Source of the DNA: a virus
Taxonomy: Duplodnaviria > Heunggongvirae > Uroviricota > Caudoviricetes
Strand: one strand, 5' to 3'
DNA: 10,639 nt
IMG/VR virus record: IMGVR_UViG_2660238215_000016
Location: 1-10,639 of that record
Each line of letters starts with the position of its first letter. Position 1 is the first letter of the stretch. The position numbers and the translations under genes are program-made. The notes beneath the pieces are model-generated. The model made no database searches, was not told the DNA's origin, and saw only the letters and a program-made list of their open reading frames with translations. Positions 3,729 to 10,639 of this stretch are shown one piece after another.

Positions 3729-4084
3729 TCACTTTCAATTTTGTAAATCTTCACGCCCAGCCGCCCACCAGAAACGAGCTGACCGCGCACAATATTGATT
3801 TCATCAAACTGCTCGTCGTCTATGAGAAGTCCGGCATGCGTCAGCGCATCCAGCGGTGCTTTCAGGATATTGTCCAGATCACGACGGCGCTTATCCGGTG
3901 GCTCTGCAATAATCTTTATCGCCAGCCTTCCGGACAGGCTTAATTTCAGCCGCTGCTGGCGAACAATAAGCGCCACAGCCCGGCGATAACGCTTTCCCTC
4001 CTCCGAGATAAAATATGTGCTGCCACGGCGTCGCCAGTAAGTGTTCACCGTCGGCGGGTAAGGTAAAACCAAATCTATGAGCAT
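3725..4084 (-). CDS. rusA: RusA Holliday-junction resolvase (crossover junction endodeoxyribonuclease)
   Basis: 119-aa ORF. LPYPPTVNTYWRRRG...PDKRRRDLDNILKAPLDALTHAGLLIDDEQ matches the RusA family catalytic core (DRRRRDLDN / D-x-L motif region); length about 120 aa as in E. coli RusA. Good SD (AGAGGTGA) 5 nt upstream of ATG. Confidence 0.9.
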   Translation of the reverse strand: MLIDLVLPYPPTVNTYWRRRGSTYFISEEGKRYRRAVALIVRQQRLKLSLSGRLAIKIIAEPPDKRRRDLDNILKAPLDALTHAGLLIDDEQFDEINIVRGQLVSGGRLGVKIYKIESE

Positions 4085-4096
4085 CAGTCACCTCTT

Positions 4097-5146
4097 TTAC
4101 CCAAGCACGCCAGTTGCAAAGGCGTGATCAAGAAAACGAAAAATTAAATCAACCTGAGAGCCATGCTTTTCTTCGAACGCCAGCGGATCCGCATGAAGCT
4201 CGTTGTGATGCTCCCGACACAGCGGTAGCGTGAAAATATCGTGAGATTTTGTCCCCATTCCGCCCTGACCATGACCAATCAGGTGATGGGGATCGTCGGC
4301 TGGCTTACCACAACACGCACACGGCTGAGTCTTCACCCAGCGTGTGTATTTCTCGTTAACCCAGCGGCGACGTTTAGGTCGTTTCATGAAAGATTCCGGA
4401 GACTCAGGATCAACGGCAATGCTGACCACCGTCTTTTCCTGTGGTGGGTTCTGTTGCTGGTGGACGTCAGGCAGTAACGCAATATTTTTTGTGCGCTGCT
4501 TCAGTATGCTGGTGGCGGTCTGCTCTCCCGGCACGATGTCGCTTTCACGGTACATTGAGCGGATTTTTTCCGCACGCACCCCCAGCGAACGACGTAATAC
4601 CGCTTCCGGTAGCGCGTCCGCCACCTGATTGCGGACCGCCCACCAGGATAATTCAGCCAAAGATAATTCACGCTCCTGCGTACCGCTTATTGCGTGACCG
4701 ATGACGTCAATCATCCATGCTGACAGGTTTTGATGAGCAAGTTGCTCGAGTGATTCGGATGTCTGGTCACGCAGCTGGTTGTCGCAGTGCCAGCACAACA
4801 CCATTGCGCCGGTACCATAACGGTGAATGACAGTTTCGCTGTGATGATAATCGCCGTGTGGCCACTGGCAGGATTTCACGTGACGCAACAGCCAGTCAGA
4901 CAATGCACCAGCACCACCAGCAGCACGAATCACCCGTGCGTTACTGAAAAACGGCAGCAATGTTTTGTCTTCCACCAGCGGCTGGCGAACGGCAGGAACG
5001 ACCCCGGACGGCAGATTACGCATGCTTTTCGGTTCCGGCTCCATCAATACCCGGGTATTGTGGAATACTGGCATGGATTCACGGCCCGGCTTAACGATCA
5101 CCAGCCCGAGTTCCGGTACCAGAACAGGTCGAAGTAATACCCGCAC
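4097..5146 (-). CDS. DUF968 family prophage protein (YdfU-like) with C-terminal Cys/His-rich HNH-like region
   Basis: 349-aa ORF, the same length as K-12 Qin YdfU from memory. C-terminus CACCGKPADDPHHLIGHGQGGMGTKSHDIFTLPLCREHHNELH is a Cys/His cluster typical of DUF968. Lies in the conserved position upstream of rusA. Confidence 0.75.
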   Translation of the reverse strand: MRVLLRPVLVPELGLVIVKPGRESMPVFHNTRVLMEPEPKSMRNLPSGVVPAVRQPLVEDKTLLPFFSNARVIRAAGGAGALSDWLLRHVKSCQWPHGDYHHSETVIHRYGTGAMVLCWHCDNQLRDQTSESLEQLAHQNLSAWMIDVIGHAISGTQERELSLAELSWWAVRNQVADALPEAVLRRSLGVRAEKIRSMYRESDIVPGEQTATSILKQRTKNIALLPDVHQQQNPPQEKTVVSIAVDPESPESFMKRPKRRRWVNEKYTRWVKTQPCACCGKPADDPHHLIGHGQGGMGTKSHDIFTLPLCREHHNELHADPLAFEEKHGSQVDLIFRFLDHAFATGVLG

Positions 5147-5860: not shown

Positions 5861-5891
5861 AAAATAAAAACAAAAACCCGCCGAAGCGGGT
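5861..5891 (-). terminator. Rho-independent terminator at the 3' end of the hok mRNA (fbi/terminator region)
   Basis: Minus strand: hairpin ACCCGC-TTCG-GCGGGT followed by TTTTGTTTTTATTTT, about 70 nt downstream of the hok stop codon. Confidence 0.65.
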
Positions 5892-5960
5892 TAAGTGCGG
5901 GTGCGTTGAGGATGCCTGCCACATCAGAGGTGGCGAGGGATTTCTCCCTCGCCGGGTCTC

Positions 5961-6116
5961 TTACTCCTCAGGTTCGTAAGCTGTGAAGACAGCGACCTCC
6001 GTCTGGCCGGTTCGGATTCGTACCTCGCAGAGGTCTTTCCTCGTTACCAGTGCCGTCACTATGACGGTTAAACAGATGACGATCAGGGCGATTAACATCG
6101 CCTTTTGCTGCTTCAT
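5961..6116 (-). CDS. hokD: Hok-family type I toxin (HokD/RelF-type small membrane toxin)
   Basis: 51-aa translation MKQQKAMLIALIVICLTVIVTALVTRKDLCEVRIRTGQTEVAVFTAYEPEE matches HokD as I recall it; AAGGAG SD about 9 nt upstream of ATG at 6116. Confidence 0.9.
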   Translation of the reverse strand: MKQQKAMLIALIVICLTVIVTALVTRKDLCEVRIRTGQTEVAVFTAYEPEE

Positions 6117-6173
6117 AGCCTGCTTCTCCTTGCCTTTCGGCACGTAAGAGGCTAACCTACATGTGTCTAGCAT
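5961..6173 (-). CDS. mok-like overlapping reading frame (modulator of killing) through which hok translation is coupled
   Basis: 70-aa ORF starting at ATG 6173 and co-terminal with hok (MLDTCRLASYVPKGKEKQA-MKQQK...), the same architecture as mok/hok in plasmid R1 hok/sok. Confidence 0.5.
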   Translation of the reverse strand: MLDTCRLASYVPKGKEKQAMKQQKAMLIALIVICLTVIVTALVTRKDLCEVRIRTGQTEVAVFTAYEPEE

Positions 6174-6200
6174 GAAATTGGCCTCAGATTAATGTTAAGC
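6135..6200 (+). ncRNA. Predicted Sok-like antisense RNA region (coordinates approximate)
   Basis: Placed by analogy with R1 hok/sok, where Sok is antisense to the hok leader around the mok SD and start. Here the mok ATG is at 6171-6173 and the tac-like 5' element of the hok mRNA (GCTTGAGGCTATCTGTCTCA on the minus strand) lies near 6265-6285. Promoter and ends not confidently read. Confidence 0.3.
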
Positions 6201-6291
6201 GTCTTGCAGGACGCGTAATGTTAACTGGGGCTTTTCTCTATCTGCCTTTGGTGTTCATGCCTGAGACAGATAGCCTCAAGCACCCGCAGCC

Positions 6292-6320: not shown

Positions 6321-6429
6321 TATGAAATCAGTCAGAAAGGCGATCCATAAGAATAATGAATTCTGTAAGGCAATAGTCTCACTGTCTAACATATCTTACC
6401 TGATTACTTTACAATATAATAATTCATAG

Positions 6430-7065
6430 TTAAATCAAATGAATGTCATCATCCAATAATTCATTAGTAGTAATACTACCTTTTTTGAAAAAATTTTCAT
6501 TTGCCTCAGCAATTTTTGCATCATTAACAAATTCATCACACATCCCAAAATAATGAAAAAATCTATTTAGTTTACATATTCCAATGGTATAGTGCCCTTT
6601 AGGTGTTTTGTCCACATAAACACGATTTGCTTTTATAATATGCATCTCATAATCATCTATATGTGGATGAACGATGCGAAATGATGCAGATGCAGTTGGA
6701 TAGTTTTTGCGCCGCCCCCCATTTATTACGGGTTCAAATAACACTTCATTTTTACCTTTGAATTCATTGCAGTCAGGACATACTACACATAGATTCTTAG
6801 GTTCAAAAATAAAACATAGATATTGAGATTTTGGCACAATATGCTCTATAGGAGCAGCTTGTGCAGCTCTTACCCCAATAGGCTCATGACAATATACACA
6901 TTCTAGCTTTTGTTCTTCTCTGTAATGATTTCTAATTTCTGCACGGAGAACTTGCAAATCATCATCTCCCCAGTTGGTATGCTTAAAATCTGGAGAAGAC
7001 AATTTTTTCTCAATAATATCTAATGACTCTGCGCTGAATCTAATTGGATTTTTAATTTTTGGCAT
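6430..7065 (-). CDS. HNH endonuclease, PtuB-like (downstream gene of a Septu-like ATPase+HNH pair)
   Basis: His-Me finger read from translation: CVYCHE ... EHIVPKS ... CVVCPDCNEFKGKN (CxxC...H...N...CxxC). ATG at 7065 with AGGTG upstream; the ORF track start (7074) is an in-frame GTG. Overlaps the upstream ATPase gene by 14 nt (23 nt with the GTG start). Strongly AT-rich by eye. Confidence 0.8.
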   Translation of the reverse strand: MPKIKNPIRFSAESLDIIEKKLSSPDFKHTNWGDDDLQVLRAEIRNHYREEQKLECVYCHEPIGVRAAQAAPIEHIVPKSQYLCFIFEPKNLCVVCPDCNEFKGKNEVLFEPVINGGRRKNYPTASASFRIVHPHIDDYEMHIIKANRVYVDKTPKGHYTIGICKLNRFFHYFGMCDEFVNDAKIAEANENFFKKGSITTNELLDDDIHLI

Positions 7066-8425
7066 AAATTTCACACACCTGAGATACGGAATTTACGAGT
7101 TCATTAATAGGGTCATTACTATTAACGTTTTCAAGGAGAAGCTGGAGTTGTTTTAATTCACGCCAATTATCATCTGTTACTAACTTAGCAGTCTTAACTT
7201 TTGAAAGTAAATTGAAAGCTAATCTGGCAATGTATTCATTCATAATGCCAGGGGCATCAAATAGTTCCGCAAGTTGATAGTCTGCAGACCGGTTGCTAAA
7301 GTATTTTGCTTTATAAAGATAACTTTTCGACAAAGATGTTATATAACAACCTTTATTCGGCAAATTGGATATTATTTGTGGTGAATGAGTTGCAATTATG
7401 AATTGACAACCTGAGTAAGTTAAAAATGCTTTTGTTAACATAATGATAAACTCTTCCTGCCATCGAGGATGCAAGCTTATTTCCGGTTCATCAATTAGTA
7501 TTATAGAACCATCAGTTATATGCCCTGCAATTCCAAGCAACATCACTAATAAACATTGTTCTCCCGAGCTCGCACGTTTAAGTGACATGGGACCATAGCT
7601 TTTTTTTATGAGTCGCATATCCATCAATCTCATGAAGCCAGCGTTCATAAGTTTAAGAATTGATCTAGAAAAATAATTATTCGCATAAGTCGAGCCAACC
7701 AATGTTTCACCATTGGTAAAATCGACTGACAAGGTTACAGCCCTACGTTCAGGTTCAAATCGATTAATTTCAACCAGTGCTTCGTAAATATCATGACGTG
7801 ATTCGGAGTTTAACTTTAAGAGACTCTCAATATTCTTCCTGTCAATTTTTATATTGTATTTTAAATATAACTCCTTAACTTCCGTTAATATCTCATCTGA
7901 ATATACACCAATGAAGTTATAGTCAGGAGTGTCCGGTCCGTTGTAAGTTGGTTTAAATACAAACTCTATATGGGGCTCAAAATCAATAGAATGAAAAACA
8001 TCGAGTAAATTTGCAGGATTTTCTGAATAAGCAAGTTTCTCTAGCCAACCTCTCGCTGCTGAAGATAAAAGGGATACGGCATTTGATACGCCGAAGGGGC
8101 CTTCTCCACGCATACCCACATAGCGATAATTATTTTCTTTCCTTTGGTGATTTAATGACCTACGCCCTGGAGGGAATTTATCGAATGGGCTGGTAGATAC
8201 GGCAATTAACTTTGGTGTTATTTCTCTGTCAAATAATGGATTAAAAGTTTTCAAGAAATGAACATCTTGAATACAGTCTTTAGCAATCTGAGATAACAAT
8301 CTGCTTTTTCCAACGCCATTTTTACCTACAATTACTGTAAAAATATTCGCATTATCAGAAACATCACCTTCTATAGCAAGTTTTAAGGTTCGACTATCAT
8401 GATGGGTATAATATAGTCTTTTCAT
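7052..8425 (-). CDS. ABC-type (AAA_15/AAA_21-like) ATPase, PtuA-like (upstream gene of a Septu-like pair)
   Basis: 457-aa ORF with Walker A GKNGVGKS near the N-terminus, ABC-signature-like SSGEQ, Walker B IILIDEPE and H-loop IIATHSP near the C-terminus. This spacing is typical of OLD/PtuA/AriA-type ABC ATPases. AT-rich; overlaps the downstream HNH gene. Confidence 0.85.
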   Translation of the reverse strand: MKRLYYTHHDSRTLKLAIEGDVSDNANIFTVIVGKNGVGKSRLLSQIAKDCIQDVHFLKTFNPLFDREITPKLIAVSTSPFDKFPPGRRSLNHQRKENNYRYVGMRGEGPFGVSNAVSLLSSAARGWLEKLAYSENPANLLDVFHSIDFEPHIEFVFKPTYNGPDTPDYNFIGVYSDEILTEVKELYLKYNIKIDRKNIESLLKLNSESRHDIYEALVEINRFEPERRAVTLSVDFTNGETLVGSTYANNYFSRSILKLMNAGFMRLMDMRLIKKSYGPMSLKRASSGEQCLLVMLLGIAGHITDGSIILIDEPEISLHPRWQEEFIIMLTKAFLTYSGCQFIIATHSPQIISNLPNKGCYITSLSKSYLYKAKYFSNRSADYQLAELFDAPGIMNEYIARLAFNLLSKVKTAKLVTDDNWRELKQLQLLLENVNSNDPINELVNSVSQVCEIYAKN

Positions 8426-8481
8426 TTTATTTTTCTCTCATTAAAATGCTCTTAATTAAGAATACCTATGCCTTTAACAGG

Positions 8482-8510
8482 CTCATAGTTATGATTTGTG
8501 ATGCTTTCAA
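8482..8510 (-). promoter_or_regulatory. Putative sigma70 promoter for the ATPase-HNH operon
   Basis: Minus strand: -35 TTGAAA (8505-8510), 17-nt spacer, -10 TATGAG (8482-8487), about 55 nt upstream of the ATPase ATG, in an AT-rich leader. Confidence 0.3.
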
Positions 8511-8809
8511 AAGGGTATGTAACTAAGTATTGAACTCTACACCTAAGATTCTAAGATTTTTAAATTAAAGTAGTTAAACATGCTTTTGATTGTACTCATT
8601 CTATGTCCATCGTTGCTGCATGTCTAGATATCGTGCCCCGCTATTGTTATGTAATGATATGATGGACGCCCTGTCTGAAGCAGCCAGTGAAATATTTTTA
8701 CTGTCTGCGTTTTCTACAGGAGTAAATCACATGAGCACAATCAGAGTTGTTGGTATTGATATTGACCTGTGCCCAATTTTTTGAGACATATATTGGTACG
8801 CTCTTGGCA

Positions 8810-8831
8810 CAGGGCTGCTGCTGCAGCCCTG
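8810..8831. other. Strong 9-bp hairpin (CAGGGCTGC-TGCT-GCAGCCCTG) immediately downstream of the recombinase fragment
   Basis: Perfect inverted repeat read from sequence; no adjacent U-tract. May be a terminator-like structure or a recombination/attachment-site remnant. Confidence 0.4.
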
Positions 8832-8837
8832 ACAGCT

Positions 8838-9083
8838 TTAGACTTCGATCGATTCAGAGATCTCTAATGCATCATCAACTTCTATACCCAGATAACGAAC
8901 TGTGCTTTCCGTTTTCTTATGGCCCAACGGAAGTTGGATCACCCGGAGATTCTTAGTTTTCTTGCAGACAAGGCAAGGTTTTGTTCTTCTCATGGAATGT
9001 GTGCTGTAAAGCGAATCTTCGAGACCAAGCTTTTCTCCCCCCTATGAAAGATTCGGTTATATTGCAGGATTGATATGTGTTGG
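8838..9083 (-). pseudogene. C-terminal fragment of a tyrosine recombinase/integrase (truncated remnant)
   Basis: Minus-strand frame translates to ...FHRGGEKLGLEDSLYSTHSMRRTKPCLVCKKTKNLRVIQLPLGHKKTESTVRYLGIEVDDALEISESIEV*, carrying the C-terminal catalytic signature H-x-x-R ... LGH ... T-x-R-Y. Only about 80 codons are open (stop at 9084-9086), and a full-length integrase cannot fit before the 280-aa gene, so it is a truncated relic. Different frames in the neighbouring 8953..9135 and 9206..9406 ORFs are consistent with decay. Confidence 0.45.
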
Positions 9084-9463
9084 TTAGTACCGACCCGAGA
9101 TCGGAACAAGTAGTCTTTACTGCGTAAATTGCCAAGCTTTATCAATGCAGAAACAGCTTCTCTTGTCCCTTTGGTTATCTCAAATTGGATAGGACTGCCA
9201 GTTTTTCAGTTGCAGCACCGTAGCTCTGCTTGAAACCGAGCTAAATCACGCGTTTTACCTTCCAGTTCAAGCCGGATTTGGAGCCCCCAGATATGAGATA
9301 TCTGAAGTGGTCTTTTTGGGCCTATGATACTGTCTTTGTTCCTCGGTGACGTATTCATACTCAAATCTCCTGCAATGTGGAAGATTTGAGTATGGTTGTC
9401 TCTCAAGAGCGAAATAGGTCAACTATAACTAGTTGTTGTGCATGTACGAATTCTGCCAATTAA

Positions 9464-10306
9464 TTATTGACAATAAAAAATTCTGGAATGTTCGAAATCA
9501 TCATATCGAATTATAATCTGGTTGACTGCATCTATTGTTGGCGCCATTTCAGTTATAATATCTCGATAACCTAAAGAGTTAAATACATTTACTAAGGCCT
9601 CACACCGCAGGCCAATAGCAATTACGACATTATAAATTGCCAGCCGTTTATTTTCTTGTTTAACTGCAAGAGTGAGTTCGATAGCAGTAGTTTTATCGCT
9701 TTGGATTGCATTATATAGAGATACTATATTTGCCATATCATCAGAGAATGTATGTATTGAATCACAAAGAGGGACGTAATAGGCATGATAGTGTGTTTCC
9801 CAGCCAATTACTTCGAAAAGCTTTTTGGTTCCAGGATATTCAGGTGTATTTGGCCACAATCTATTAAACATATCAGTTAGCTCTTTTCCGATACGAATCC
9901 TTTCATCTGCTGCTGGATTAGTCATTTCTTTGGATTTTAAACACTCCAGCCACCGTTTCCCATTACTATGAACTAATTTCTTACTACCCTTGAGTAATGC
10001 TTGTGCATTTTTTCCATCATCAATTGCTATATAAAATTGATTGGCAGCCTGTTCCATTATAACTCTAGTTAATACTTCCGATGCTGAAAAGGCTCCGGTA
10101 CTCAAAGAAAATATAGCCTGATTACTAAGTTCATTCAGTACATTAAAGTAATGTAAAACCATCAATTTTTGTTCCACCCCCTTTAGGTTATCTATTTTAT
10201 CTTTATGCCTCTCAAATTTCGCATGGATATATTTATTTATCGCGGCTATTTTTTTTACATCTTCGTCGAAATCAAACGGGCAACGTCCAAACGATTTTTT
10301 CCTCAT
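9464..10306 (-). CDS. Hypothetical protein (280 aa), unrecognised family; accessory/defence-island cargo
   Basis: Long intact ORF with ATG start, near-consensus SD (AGGAGG, 6-nt spacing) and a perfect -10 TATAAT at 10345-10350 upstream. AT-rich like the ATPase/HNH genes. No motifs I can assign with confidence. Confidence 0.75.
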   Translation of the reverse strand: MRKKSFGRCPFDFDEDVKKIAAINKYIHAKFERHKDKIDNLKGVEQKLMVLHYFNVLNELSNQAIFSLSTGAFSASEVLTRVIMEQAANQFYIAIDDGKNAQALLKGSKKLVHSNGKRWLECLKSKEMTNPAADERIRIGKELTDMFNRLWPNTPEYPGTKKLFEVIGWETHYHAYYVPLCDSIHTFSDDMANIVSLYNAIQSDKTTAIELTLAVKQENKRLAIYNVVIAIGLRCEALVNVFNSLGYRDIITEMAPTIDAVNQIIIRYDDFEHSRIFYCQ

Positions 10307-10344
10307 ATATTCCTCCTGTTTTACAATCTCCCATAAGTTGGAAA

Positions 10345-10350
10345 ATTATA
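10345..10350 (-). promoter_or_regulatory. Putative -10 element (TATAAT) of the promoter for the 280-aa gene
   Basis: Perfect TATAAT on the minus strand about 40 nt upstream of the ATG; the candidate -35 (TTATTT, 17-nt spacer) is weak. Confidence 0.35.
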
Positions 10351-10568
10351 CACTGGAGATTACCTATAAATAACTGCGCACGATAGCTAGTCAGTGCAAG
10401 AAGTACAACCAAGTGAACGGTGCGTATCAGATACCTAGCTTAAAGTTCGCGATAGCCGTACTCTGTGTATTAGCTCAGACATTACCTGACAGGTTGAGTA
10501 GATAGAATCGAATCAAAGCTGACAGTCTGGTTTGGACTGTGGGGTCAACCGATGGATGCAACACACAG

Positions 10569-10639
10569 TGAACCGCCCCGGAAATCCTGGAGACTAAACT
10601 CCCTGAGAAAGAGGTAAACAGGATGACTAAAAATACTCG
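10569..10639 (+). mobile_element. Left end (terminal inverted repeat and leader) of an IS3-family insertion sequence, IS629/IS1203-like; continues beyond the window
   Basis: TGAACCGCCCCGGAAATCCTGGAGACTAAACTCCCTGAGAAAGAGGTAAACAGG followed by ATGACTAAAAATACTCG matches, from memory, the IS629/IS1203 left terminus and orfA start (MTKNTRF...). IS3-family ends begin with TG. Confidence 0.7.
10623..10639 (+). CDS. Partial CDS: IS3-family transposase OrfA, N-terminus only (MTKNT...)
   Basis: ATG at 10623 preceded by GAGG SD inside the IS left end; truncated by the window edge. Confidence 0.6.

Follow-up and report, generated by a model that had tools for sequence, protein, structure and literature searches.

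A decayed tyrosine recombinase unit between Septu and DUF5677 modules of a Qin-like prophage, a probable fossil of cassette-type recombination

Introduction

In integrons, a tyrosine recombinase gene lies beside promoter-poor cargo modules that are split by short imperfect inverted-repeat sites, and the cassettes carry defence or accessory genes. The loci considered here share these features, but with several differences. The recombinase is 200 aa long and consists of the catalytic domain only, whereas the integron integrase (IntI) is about 320 aa and has a specific insertion. The sites, which we call A and B, are unrelated in sequence to the R and L boxes of attC, and the recombinase gene is placed inside a unit rather than beside attI. 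The arrays are found in prophage hotspots and in CP4-type and ICE-like islands, mostly without the recombinase in cis, and they have no evident common promoter (Pc).

The nearest sequence relatives of the catalytic domain are XerC, XerD and XerA, and intact members of the family hold the full R-K-H-R-H-Y set. Unlike XerC/XerD, they have no N-terminal core-binding domain, score far under the Xer cutoffs, are associated with sites unrelated to dif, and are located among the cargo of mobile elements. FimB/FimE are similar in size (~200 aa) and in their minimal architecture, and also act on short inverted repeats; the comparative pattern seen here, in contrast, is replacement of cargo, not inversion. 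By description and context the loci can also be likened to Tn6212, the "XerC-type tyrosine recombinase transposon" carried as cargo inside ICEs of Pseudomonas syringae. In marine loci our recombinase, too, lies between heavy-metal cargo (ars on one side, cop/cus on the other) within an ICE-like island. The published 14-bp repeat of Tn6212, AAATACGTTATCAC, was absent from all loci collected.

In the Z region of phage P2, variable ORFs between G and FI are surrounded by an annotated "left inverted repeat" and "right inverted repeat", of which B and A, respectively, are the inner ends. GenBank entries AJ512676-AJ512685 (with P2-ECxx names) we take, from the strain names, to belong to Nilsson, Karlsson and Haggard-Ljungquist, 2004. 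That paper (Mol Biol Evol 21:1), by its title, reportedly proposes site-specific recombination. What is new here beyond the Z-region annotation is a candidate recombinase unit, the A-spacer-B units of islands, the lambdoid hokD and replication-gene hotspots, and the identity of cassettes across backbones.

Anti-phage gene hotspots in P2-like phages and other prophages rank among the major sources of new defence systems. How their cargo is swapped so fast, and between unrelated elements, was stated to be unknown in September 2026 (PMC13586616). Hotspot papers from 2022 and 2026 mention neither the repeats nor the recombinase. A literature search for the small tyrosine recombinase or its RefSeq accession returned nothing, and we found no paper linking the P2 repeats to a recombinase.

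Here we describe a relic that bears on this question. The window, by which we mean the whole stretch of 10,639 nt that was analysed, lies at the hokD-side hotspot of a Qin-like lambdoid prophage of E. coli. From sequence comparison we propose, with a probability of roughly 0.6, that one feature of the window is the fossil remains of the recombinase unit from a site-specific recombination system of the cassette type.

The recombinase pseudogene

A minus-strand frame that ends in YSTHSMRRTKPCLVCKKTKNLRVIQLPLGHKKTESTVRYLGIEVDDALEISESIEV before a TAA at 8838-8840 holds HxxR, LGH and RY, signatures that a preliminary description of the sequence had recognized. That description credited the gene with about 80 remaining codons. 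The uninterrupted frame is shorter (~68 codons, 8838 to ~9045), with the HxxR, LGH and RY codons confined to these last ~68 codons, and far more of the gene survives. Alignment with one intact homologue recovers it up to an ATG at 9358 (91.5% identity and 8.5% substitutions over 520 aligned nt), including the frameshifted N-terminal pieces that had been suspected. The pseudogene occupies 8838-9358 on the minus strand and is close to full length; the tyrosine recombinase that it once encoded had 200 aa and no domain besides the catalytic one. In E2348/69, PGAP/RefSeq labels exactly this span [quoted passage not shown], and the stitched translation of the window copy matches Pfam PF00589 (Phage_integrase) with E=2.2e-10 and 41 bits (cutoff 27.1).

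The gene has three lesions. An 82-bp deletion at 9243/9244 removes codons ~39-66, including the Arg-I motif KLRGCDL. By alignment, there is also a +1 insertion at position 9206 and a -1 deletion at 9040/9041. Arg-I, Lys, His-x-x-Arg, His/Trp and Tyr consequently do not stand in one intact frame. Because Arg-I is deleted and two frameshifts are present, we class the window copy as a pseudogene of a family member, and the recombinase unit of the window is now inactive.

A near full-length copy of the gene is present in ~775 of 5,426 complete E. coli genomes, and most of those sampled are annotated as intact. E. coli Nissle 1917 and ATCC 25922 are among the carriers of the intact gene. The intact homologue WP_001305361.1 is 88-91% identical in nucleotide sequence to the window pseudogene. 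Intact relatives are 200 aa long without an arm-binding or core-binding domain, and are located inside islands and hotspots between cargo modules, not at island ends. They have precomputed PF00589 matches, L048 scores 71 bits, and R51, K79, H148, R151, H174 and Y183 are invariant among 30 intact homologues.

The family belongs to the tyrosine recombinase superfamily, with the catalytic domain only. A profile search of the PDB found XerD (1a0p, E=1e-5) and XerA, and a single-sequence phmmer search of the PDB found nothing. Residues 36-185 align to XerD residues 131-279, the N-terminal domain of XerD being without counterpart. Scores against models of named subfamilies are far below the cutoffs: 15.9 bits vs. 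265 for integron integrases (TIGR02249), 49.6 vs. 335 for XerC, 32.1 vs. 330 for XerD, and 25.5 vs. 222 and 18.2 vs. 221 for FimB/FimE-type invertases (NF007371 and NF007370, respectively). There is a weak NCBIfam match to "tyrosine-type DNA invertase" (E=8e-6). The AlphaFold model of the recombinase is poor (pLDDT 47.5), owing to the shallow alignment.

The two ends of the unit

Six nt past the recombinase stop codon, on the minus strand, lies a hairpin with a perfect 9-bp stem and a 4-nt loop (8810-8831). The preliminary description had this exactly right: the arms are CAGGGCTGC (8810-8818) and GCAGCCCTG (8823-8831), with the loop TGCT between them. Folded as RNA, the hairpin reaches -20.8 kcal/mol (z=-2.4); folded as DNA, it reaches -12.6 kcal/mol (z=-3.3). 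The window has three perfect 9-bp hairpins, and at least one is found in 24% of composition-matched shuffles of the window. The significance of the hairpin therefore comes from its conservation and not from the improbability of one perfect 9-bp stem. A stable hairpin is present between the stop codon and a conserved tail in all 16 of the diverse homologous loci that were folded, the stems being different. In 21 distinct hairpin sequences of the enteric type, 97.9% of cells are paired on the recombinase-sense strand, with ten G-U cells and zero A-C cells. Such asymmetric tolerance of G-U hints at folding of one strand.

The tail (8796-8809, minus strand), with which the recombinase unit ends, is what remains of B's outer half. 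Its sequence, TGCCAAGAGCGTAC, differs from the consensus, TGCCAGAAGCGGAC, by three mismatches. It is the sole match to the tail motif in the window, a second copy being absent. The tail is kept 3′ of the hairpin in Enterobacteria, Pseudomonas, marine gammaproteobacteria and other loci, and an inverted copy of it is found upstream of the recombinase gene in homologous loci. In 80 species-level loci the hairpin and tail are both conserved, with stems that are different and compensating. At standalone sites, the tail sequence makes up the right arm and centre of the palindrome GTCCGCTTYGTGCCAGAAGCGGAC, and the hairpin is the counterpart of the inner arms of the inverted repeat at the B end.

The same boundary is seen from the flanks. 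Homology to the copies in EcN, CDE2901, CFSAN and L135 stops at the tail end (window position 8796), and in four E. coli contexts with unrelated flanks the unit homology begins at ~9412 and stops at ~8796 (window positions). The B half of the window has 3 mismatches to the extended consensus over 32 specified positions (0 matches in 200 shuffles), and intact sites occupy the orthologous position in L002, L003, L005 and L135. The hairpin and tail are the conserved 3′ end of the recombinase unit.

As to what the hairpin does, its sequence relationships make it plausibly part of a recombination site. The earlier suggestion of a leftover attachment or recombination site holds to this extent; the attachment site of an island it is not. 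The hairpin does not look like a Rho-independent terminator: the sense-strand sequence past the stem, TGCCAAGAGCG, has no T/U run 3′ of the hairpin, and a consensus scan for intrinsic terminators on both strands made no call on it. Rfam has no match for either the 3′ or the 5′ hairpin, the only strong match in the window being sok. The hairpin could be purely an mRNA 3′-end element, and we count this against our best explanation.

The 5′ hairpin (9356-9394, minus strand), found by inverted-repeat search and RNA folding, has perfect arms of 13 bp in the window and of 15 bp in intact copies. In it, both the Shine-Dalgarno sequence and the start ATG of the recombinase gene are base-paired, and its RNA folding energy is -21.3 kcal/mol (z=-5.2). 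An anti-SD/SD hairpin with covarying stems was present in 10 of 10 diverse loci. Upstream of the recombinase gene, alignment with intact units reveals an eroded relic of site A (9399-9425, minus strand), which reads AGTTGACCTATTTCGCTCTTGAGAGAC where the consensus is AACGTCCGCTYYTCGCTCAYAGCGGAC. The S88 copy has the same degenerate outer A arm. A search of the window with an HMM of the unit (nhmmer) gave no A or B match at E≤1, and the A and B PWMs score in the window at or below shuffle levels.

Sites and cassette exchange in related loci

The intact unit is ~700-750 bp long and comprises site A, the 5′ hairpin, the 200-aa recombinase, the stem-loop and the outer half of B. Site A is a ~24-28-bp imperfect palindrome, GTCCGCT-N10-AGCGGAC. 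Site B, of ~24 bp, is also palindromic and is essentially A inverted, with a different centre. The sites take other forms as well: a ~75-bp A-spacer-B unit between genes (19 clear examples were collected) and a B...A pair around cargo. The site grammar observed can be written as B-(cargo-[A-spacer-B])n-cargo-A. The ~75-bp unit has outer and inner complementary boxes and a variable spacer, and a single strand of it forms a hairpin with bulges. The orientation of sites and units agrees with that of the recombinase gene by 39:2 (p=8e-10). In intact relatives, co-oriented imperfect-palindrome sites are thus found between cargo modules beside a recombinase gene, as expected of an integron-like platform; of this layout the window itself has eroded site relics only. 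That the unit has terminal inverted repeats is based on enteric and Pseudomonas examples and on inspection of the upstream alignment; the ungapped test in all clades is weak (16 of all 71 intact loci vs. 7 of 131 controls at a score of at least 11).

A B 11-mer, allowing one mismatch at most, occurs three to six times in many 12.6-kb loci, against ~0.2 expected by our own calculation. The exact B site of 21 specified bases is found in >120 viral contigs (~0 expected, as a rough estimate), in layouts such as B-A (32 cases), B-U-A, B-U and similar. The recombinase is encoded in only 2 of 80 site-bearing viral loci, so that its action would have to be in trans.

Loci of four kinds have cargo bracketed by A/B sites or by ~75-bp units. 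They are the Z/fun hotspot of P2, a P2-like hotspot beside the replication gene (in P2, the tin/old position), the hokD side of Qin-like lambdoid prophages, and CP4-type islands. In phage P2, B (15330-15362) is followed by fun(Z) and then by A (17428-17455), and in all 16 P2-like contigs that have both G and FI, every site lies between those genes. At the Qin-like hotspot, A′ is beside hokD and B′ is on the ydfX/dicC side; Qin of K-12 has one B site and one A site around flxA. (The K-12 gene intK/ydfW, at the analogous Qin position, was considered as a relative and rejected, as its product is unrelated to the recombinase.)

Cassette homology breaks at the A/B sites. The lambdoid hokD hotspot and a P2-like hotspot beside a gpA-like replication gene share a NUDIX+HAD cassette of 1436 bp at 99.5% identity, and the homology stops ~26 nt within each site. 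Dozens of sequenced P2-like phages lose their homology to P2 at B and regain it at A. Breakpoints ~26 nt inside the sites could also come from short-homology general recombination, which we again count against our best explanation.

The array in the window

On one side of the unit is a Septu type I cassette (6430-8425, minus strand), in which the PtuA ATPase gene (7052-8425) is adjacent to the PtuB HNH nuclease gene (6430-7074). PADLOC identified both (E=1.2e-165 and 1.1e-83, respectively), and the genes overlap by 23 nt. A spacer of 370 bp separates the cassette from the outer edge of the B relic. The pseudogene is embedded in AT-rich cargo beside a defence system, and the earlier remark that a decayed tyrosine recombinase adjoins defence cargo was correct. 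The segment 6358-8796 is found in only 19 E. coli genomes, with the pseudogene present in all of them. Around more distant Septu relatives in viral contigs, both the A/B sites and the recombinase are absent. A very short ORF fragment, MSTIRVVGIDID (8732-8785, plus strand), may resemble the N-termini of IS110-type transposases.

On the other side is a DUF5677 gene (9464-10306, minus strand; Pfam PF18928; phrog_4167, E=3e-176), a cargo module linked to the recombinase unit. S88, IHE3034 and ~35 other genomes carry, as cargo of the P2 Z/fun hotspot, a block 89% identical to window positions 8874 to ~10623; one A site and one B site mark its limits there. As the same block is found in P2 prophage hotspots, the DUF5677 gene and the recombinase travelled as one unit. 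The block is common to the P2 and lambdoid hotspots, and the break is at B.

The left junction of cargo and backbone, on the sok/hokD side, was placed at 6357/6358 by comparison with other genomes. Hundreds of genomes match the window only as far as 6357, and the junction is not at a site. In related lambdoid prophages, 215 bp of backbone follow this position and then comes A′, the cargo diverging exactly at the outer A′ end. The junction at 6357/8 is a deletion: the conserved 215 bp of backbone were lost there, together with the A′ site expected beyond them. At the right, upstream of the DUF5677 cassette, 10569-10639 is the terminal part of an IS3-family insertion (IS629/IS1203 type) and not an att site. 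E2348/69 is without this IS and has a decayed B′ ~85-115 bp further on (L001 14155-14183; PWM score 19.8 vs. a shuffle maximum of ~11). In L135, the intact counterpart, the same backbone extends to window position 6357 and is followed by A′-cargo-[B half, hairpin, intact recombinase gene, A′]-cargo-B′.

Read on the minus strand, the array of the window is backbone-(decayed B′ beyond the IS)-DUF5677-[A relic-dead recombinase-hairpin-B half]-Septu-(A′ deleted)-sok/hokD. The position of the unit in the array thus marks the joint between the Septu and DUF5677 cargo modules. No second copy of the unit was found in the genomes carrying this array. Since the unit is dead and has no second copy in these genomes, the Septu/DUF5677 array is frozen.

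Other explanations considered

On the view of the preliminary description, a conventional integrative island, or a prophage, had brought in 6350-10568 and left behind part of its integrase, with the hairpin as a former att site. The tyrosine recombinase pseudogene is genuine, the cargo is AT-rich and a defence system is adjacent, all of which would suit such an origin. At its potC end, however, the host prophage still carries an Arm-domain integrase and an excisionase, both its own and intact, and the intact relatives of the pseudogene are proteins of 200 aa without arm- or core-binding domains, encoded internally between cargo modules. Nor do the proposed boundaries hold up: 10568 is the end of the IS, 6357/8 is the deletion junction, and the direct or att-like repeats expected to flank 6350-10568 were not found, only short chance-level repeat families being present. 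The window is also without a tRNA or tmRNA gene as att target. An island integrase is extremely improbable on these grounds. We are very doubtful, too, of a FimB/FimE-like DNA invertase that flips its own segment or the adjacent cargo and serves as a phase-variation switch for the defence genes. The size and the catalytic-domain-only build, together with the weak NCBIfam match, would fit, and the sites around the gene and around each cassette are inverted; but 25.5 bits is remote from the cutoff of 222, and the A and B centres share ~4/6 central bases (or 6/10), which disfavours an A × B exchange. The 39:2 co-orientation implies that flipped states are rare, and cargo replacement, as noted, is the main comparative signal.

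It is also conceivable that the unit is a selfish IS-like mini-element that simply inserts between genes and of which A/B are miniature derivatives, the cargo being swapped by general or phage homologous recombination, for which the conserved repeats would supply homology in portable form, and the hairpin serving as an mRNA 3′ stabiliser or terminator. Insertion sequences typically carry 5′ hairpins that occlude the ribosome binding site against outside transcription, and the 5′ hairpin of the unit is of this kind. The unit ends in inverted repeats of ~16 bp, AACGTCCGCTTCT(C/G)GC, and the short A-spacer-B copies resemble MITEs. G-U pairs on the sense strand only would fit an RNA structure, the breakpoints lie far enough inside the repeats for short-homology recombination, and the repeats of the P2 Z region reach ~90-113 bp. 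Yet the hairpin is without a U tract, the tail sequence is conserved while the adjoining stems covary, and the units are co-oriented with the gene. Each site, moreover, is built as a dyad in the manner of the core sites of tyrosine recombinases, and the same cassette occurs in unrelated backbones that share only the A/B sites. On balance we regard a mini-element as unlikely.

Proposed mechanism

We prefer the view that the unit of the window is a fossil of cassette-type site-specific recombination, in which the recombinase is inferred to act on the A/B sites. In cis or in trans, it would recombine like sites, A with A and B with B. Such recombination would excise, insert or swap cargo modules between site-bearing replicons, as integron cassettes move. 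A and B may be used in duplex form, as 9-6-9 core sites, or as single strands that have folded.

A wider claim can be made, to which we give somewhat less than even odds: that the recombinase and the ~75-bp inverted-repeat units form an integron-like but unrelated platform for cassette exchange, which fills and reshuffles several hotspots. This would cover the P2-like Z/fun and replication-gene hotspots, the Qin-like hokD region, CP4-type islands, and ICE cargo across Proteobacteria, and it takes the window as a dead copy caught between Septu and DUF5677 cassettes. Also counted against our best explanation are that so few site-bearing viral loci encode the recombinase, that the window has no significant A/B site, that its left junction is off-site, that Septu relatives are unflanked, and that the terminal-repeat test is weak.

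Concluding remarks

By itself the window carries a modest message: a dead recombinase, eroded sites, and a Septu/DUF5677 array that stays where it is. The relic nevertheless yields concrete sites (A and B), a candidate enzyme, and natural substrates for the exchange of genes at hotspots. If the proposal is true, this would be a second integron-like cassette system. It would also provide a rule for delimiting the cargo of prophage hotspots, and a guilt-by-association route to defence genes, of which DUF5677 would be one candidate.

The recombinase relic and its family

The minus-strand frame that ends at 8838 carries the HxxR, LGH and RY signatures first noticed in it (...THSMRRTK...LGHKK...TVRYLGIEVDDALEISESIEV, then stop), and its stitched translation exceeds the Pfam Phage_integrase threshold (41 bits vs. 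27.1, E=2e-10), confirming a tyrosine recombinase. The preliminary description left it about 80 codons, but alignment to an intact 603-bp homologue shows a far longer remnant, from the ATG at 9358 to 8838. The lesions are an 82-bp deletion at 9243/9244, which removed codons ~39–66 with the Arg-I motif KLRGCDL, a +1 insertion at 9206, a −1 deletion at 9040/9041 and 44 substitutions. The relic per se is ordinary, and its pseudogene status is already annotated: RefSeq labels the same span a frameshifted recombinase pseudogene.

Near full-length copies (88–91% nucleotide identity) occur in ~775 of 5,426 complete E. coli genomes, among them Nissle 1917, ATCC 25922 and the 'clone D' UPEC lineage. 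For most of the copies sampled, the annotation gives an intact product of 200 aa. The copies sit within CP4-type islands, with neighbors that vary on both sides. The family is both very large and strongly conserved, with E<=1e-10 for 7,998 of 8,000 scored candidate clusters and 60–97% identity among members across Gamma- and Betaproteobacteria. The catalytic domain alone is present (residues ~36–185 align to XerD 131–279, and also to XerA/XerC), its catalytic residues invariant in 30 homologues. No curated model is reached, every score falling far under its cutoff (XerC, 49.6 vs. 335; DNA invertase, 25.5 vs. 222; integron integrase, 15.9 vs. 265). K-12 intK/ydfW, at the analogous position in Qin, is unrelated to the recombinase.

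In marine gammaproteobacterial contigs (L006–L013) an identical 200-aa recombinase lies at 8001–8603, with an arsenic-resistance module on one side and copper/cus modules on the other. The setting is an ICE-like island (RadC, VWA/CobT, Toprim primase), and a DDE transposase often follows the gene. Because of these neighbors, the system is not limited to defence cargo.

Ends of the recombinase unit

Homology among four E. coli contexts, whose flanks are unrelated, starts ~55 bp upstream of the ATG (window ~9412) and ends 14 nt past the hairpin (window 8796). The perfect 9-bp hairpin lies exactly where it was first reported, at 8810–8831 (CAGGGCTGC, loop TGCT, GCAGCCCTG). A single hairpin of this kind is not improbable, at least one appearing in 24% of shuffles; its meaning comes from conservation. 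Across 80 species-level loci a stable stem-loop, with a stem sequence that varies by clade, stands 5–15 nt after the stop codon and is followed by a semi-conserved tail, (T/G)GCCAGAAGCGG(A/C)C. On the recombinase-sense strand, 97.9% of the stem cells in 21 distinct enteric-type sequences are paired. The wobbles (10/10 cells) are all G-U or U-G, with no A-C, and by our own count pairing on the opposite strand would therefore drop to 92.6%. The asymmetry suggests selection on the sense-strand fold, as mRNA or as that DNA strand. The hairpin is not a called terminator: no T run follows it and a terminator scan was negative. It is a real, conserved structural part of the unit's end, and may belong to the DNA substrate (as a duplex inner-arm pair or a folded strand) or be an mRNA 3′-end element beside the site.

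At the other end, an upstream hairpin pairs the Shine-Dalgarno sequence, and in E. coli the ATG also, in 10/10 loci compared (the window, L002, L007, L022, L033, L039, L048, L056, L070 and L081), with covarying stems. In the window it occupies 9356–9394 on the minus strand (−21.3 kcal/mol, z=−5.2). Farther upstream the tail recurs in inverted copy, for example as GTCCGCTTCTGGCCGGTTAGCGACC in Pseudomonas and AACGTCCGCTTTTCGCTCA in enterics, within a site that we call A; in the window, the stretch from site A to the ATG showed no promoter-like site. By analogy with some insertion sequences, the 5′ hairpin looks like a device for fold-back inhibition of translation from read-through transcripts.

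Sites A and B

A scan of the loci for the tail motif found many extra copies away from the recombinase gene, which resolve into two near-palindromic sites. A is (AAC)GTCCGCT-YYTCGCTCAY-AGCGGAC(C) and B is GTCCGCT-TYGTGCCAGA-AGCGGAC(GTT), essentially an inverted A with a different center. Their usual form is a ~75-bp A-spacer-B unit (U) between genes (19 clear examples), which as a single strand folds into a long, bulged hairpin of −16 to −18 kcal/mol. Sites and units outside the recombinase unit are co-oriented with the gene 39:2 (p=8e-10). The recombinase gene itself lies inside a unit, in the order A, 5′ hairpin, gene, stem-loop, B center and outer arm. The stem-loop is equivalent to the B-end inner arms, and in Pseudomonas the B inner arm can be recognized in the 3′ arm of the stem. 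Unit-like repeats are found in at least 881 of the 5,426 E. coli genomes, at 1–3 places each, and no annotated feature lies beneath them among the 25 matches listed.

An exact B pattern of 21 specified bases matches more than 120 viral contigs. The grammar in 80 loci of these is B-cargo-A in 32, B only in 25, and B-U-A, B-U or similar in the rest; a recombinase is encoded in only 2 of the 80. P2-like loci account for 23/80, and wherever both genes are present (16/16) all sites lie between G and FI, the Z/fun hotspot. In phage P2, B (15330–15362) is followed by fun(Z) and then A (17428–17455), and dozens of sequenced P2-like phages lose homology to P2 at B and regain it at A. Qin-like lambdoid contigs (n=13) read rem, hokD, 215 bp, A′, cargo, B′, ydfX, dicC, where A′ is on the hokD side and B′ on that of ydfX and dicC, and their cargo becomes dissimilar precisely at the outer edge of A′. 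K-12 Qin (L004) has a B site at 5981–6009, within the ORF annotated as ydfV, and one A site at 6970–6997, which separates flxA from ydfW; under this grammar, flxA counts as a B-cargo-A cassette. The lambdoid hokD hotspot and a P2-like hotspot adjoining a gpA-like replication gene, which is the tin/old position in P2, share a 1436-bp two-gene cassette (NUDIX hydrolase and HAD hydrolase) at 99.5% identity, and its homology stops ~26 nt inside each site (L169 889–2407; also L100, L110, L113, L126, L154, L170 and L174).

The locus in the window

The source of the window is a Qin-type E. coli lambdoid prophage. Its cargo is 99.9–100% identical to 18–19 complete genomes, including EPEC E2348/69 (L001), where the prophage adjoins potC and retains an Arm-domain integrase and an excisionase of its own. 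Replication genes (P, a DUF1627 fragment) flank the cargo region on one side and hokD/sok-rem-DUF968-RusA-Q on the other, with sok at 6111–6285 (Rfam, 118 bits). Just downstream of hokD, a weak isrK-like Rfam match (5871–5952, minus strand; 25.7 bits, under the gathering score of 50) is probably a mere intrinsic terminator, because its end is a GC-rich hairpin with a perfect 9-bp stem, then a T run (5932–5953). The G+C content falls to 30–38% from ~6358, and is ~44% over the relic. On the minus strand PtuB (6430–7074, PADLOC E=1e-83) and PtuA (7052–8425, E=1e-165) form a type I Septu system. The insertion sequences at the cargo edges vary by strain: an IS3-family end of IS629/IS1203 type (10569–10639) in the window vs. 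IS481 between hokD and PtuB in E2348/69 (L001 8588–9676).

An intact counterpart is found in contig L135, which shares the window's backbone up to 6357. Beyond it come A′, two cargo ORFs, a block of B half, hairpin, intact recombinase gene and A′, two further cargo ORFs, and B′. The window is this architecture in ruins. At the 6357/8 junction the 215-bp backbone piece and the A′ beside sok are deleted. Septu abuts the outer edge of the B relic (8796) via a 370-bp spacer with promoter-like sites. The recombinase is dead, a degenerate A relic lies at 9399–9425, and a DUF5677 cassette comes after it. The distal B′ is kept only as a decayed site in E2348/69 (L001 14155–14183), past the window's IS insertion point. 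Genomes with the window's arrangement match the recombinase at one place only, and therefore nothing there is able to mobilize the array now. A possible fragment of another element lies within the spacer, a short plus-strand ORF (8732–8785, MSTIRVVGIDIDLCPIF) that looks like IS110-type transposase N-termini. L135 also has a distant second fragment of the family (3878–4099, minus strand; 44% identical, residues 100–191) in a neighboring cassette, and the contig contains an associated enteric-type hairpin-tail variant, TTTAGGGCTGCAACAGCACCTCTGTGTCATAGGCGGAAGT.

The block from the recombinase through DUF5677 (8874 to ~10623) is 89% identical to P2 Z/fun cargo in S88, IHE3034 and ~35 other genomes, where A and B bound it and the recombinase gene either lacks its 3′ end or retains only the first ~35 codons. 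The block moved as a unit between the P2 and lambdoid hotspots. The DUF5677 gene (9464–10306, minus; L015 8674–9516; L016 8212–9054) encodes a protein of the function-unknown class phrog_4167 with no PADLOC hit. It is linked to the small recombinase at two places, in this lambdoid hotspot and, in ~35 B2-type E. coli genomes, at the P2 Z/fun defence hotspot, and this location makes it a candidate anti-phage gene.

A possible mechanism

The analysis establishes what the pseudogene is and how it was damaged, that the tail and the hairpins at both ends of the gene are conserved, and that the sites follow a grammar, share the orientation of the gene and coincide with breakpoints. We prefer the view, at a probability of about 0.6, that the 200-aa enzyme recombines like sites. 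Cargo would thereby be excised, inserted or swapped in an integron-like way, the recombinase would usually be supplied in trans, and the window's unit would be a fossil of this machinery where two cassettes join. A selfish mini-element, whose copies offer portable homology to general recombination, is a possible but distinctly less probable explanation. An invertase switch is improbable, and a relic of a classical island integrase more improbable still. The initial reading of an island integrase plus att site was wrong in kind but right in spirit.

Relation to earlier work

GenBank records of P2-ECxx Z-regions (AJ512676-85) annotate 113-bp 'left' and 91-bp 'right inverted repeats', which fall exactly at the B and A sites; the P2 Z/fun sites are therefore prior art. 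Judged by their names, the records presumably come from Nilsson et al. 2004, whose title reportedly proposed site-specific recombination. Papers on Pseudomonas syringae ICEs describe Tn6212 as a 'XerC-type tyrosine recombinase transposon' with short flanking palindromes, and report the same repeats around metal-resistance cargo. The Tn6212 recombinase probably belongs to the same family as the small recombinase. For the P2 hotspots, a paper of 2022 on hotspots mentions neither a recombinase nor a palindrome or inverted repeat. In our literature search no paper was found that ties the repeats to the minimal recombinase, to the island A-spacer-B arrays or to the lambdoid hokD hotspot. A 2026 paper (PMC13586616) describes no hotspot repeats, mentions the P2/P4 integrases as sole recombinases and states that recombination processes at P2/P4 hotspots 'still need to be elucidated'. 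The wider A/B system, a variant of the known tyrosine-recombinase cassette platforms, makes this question testable.
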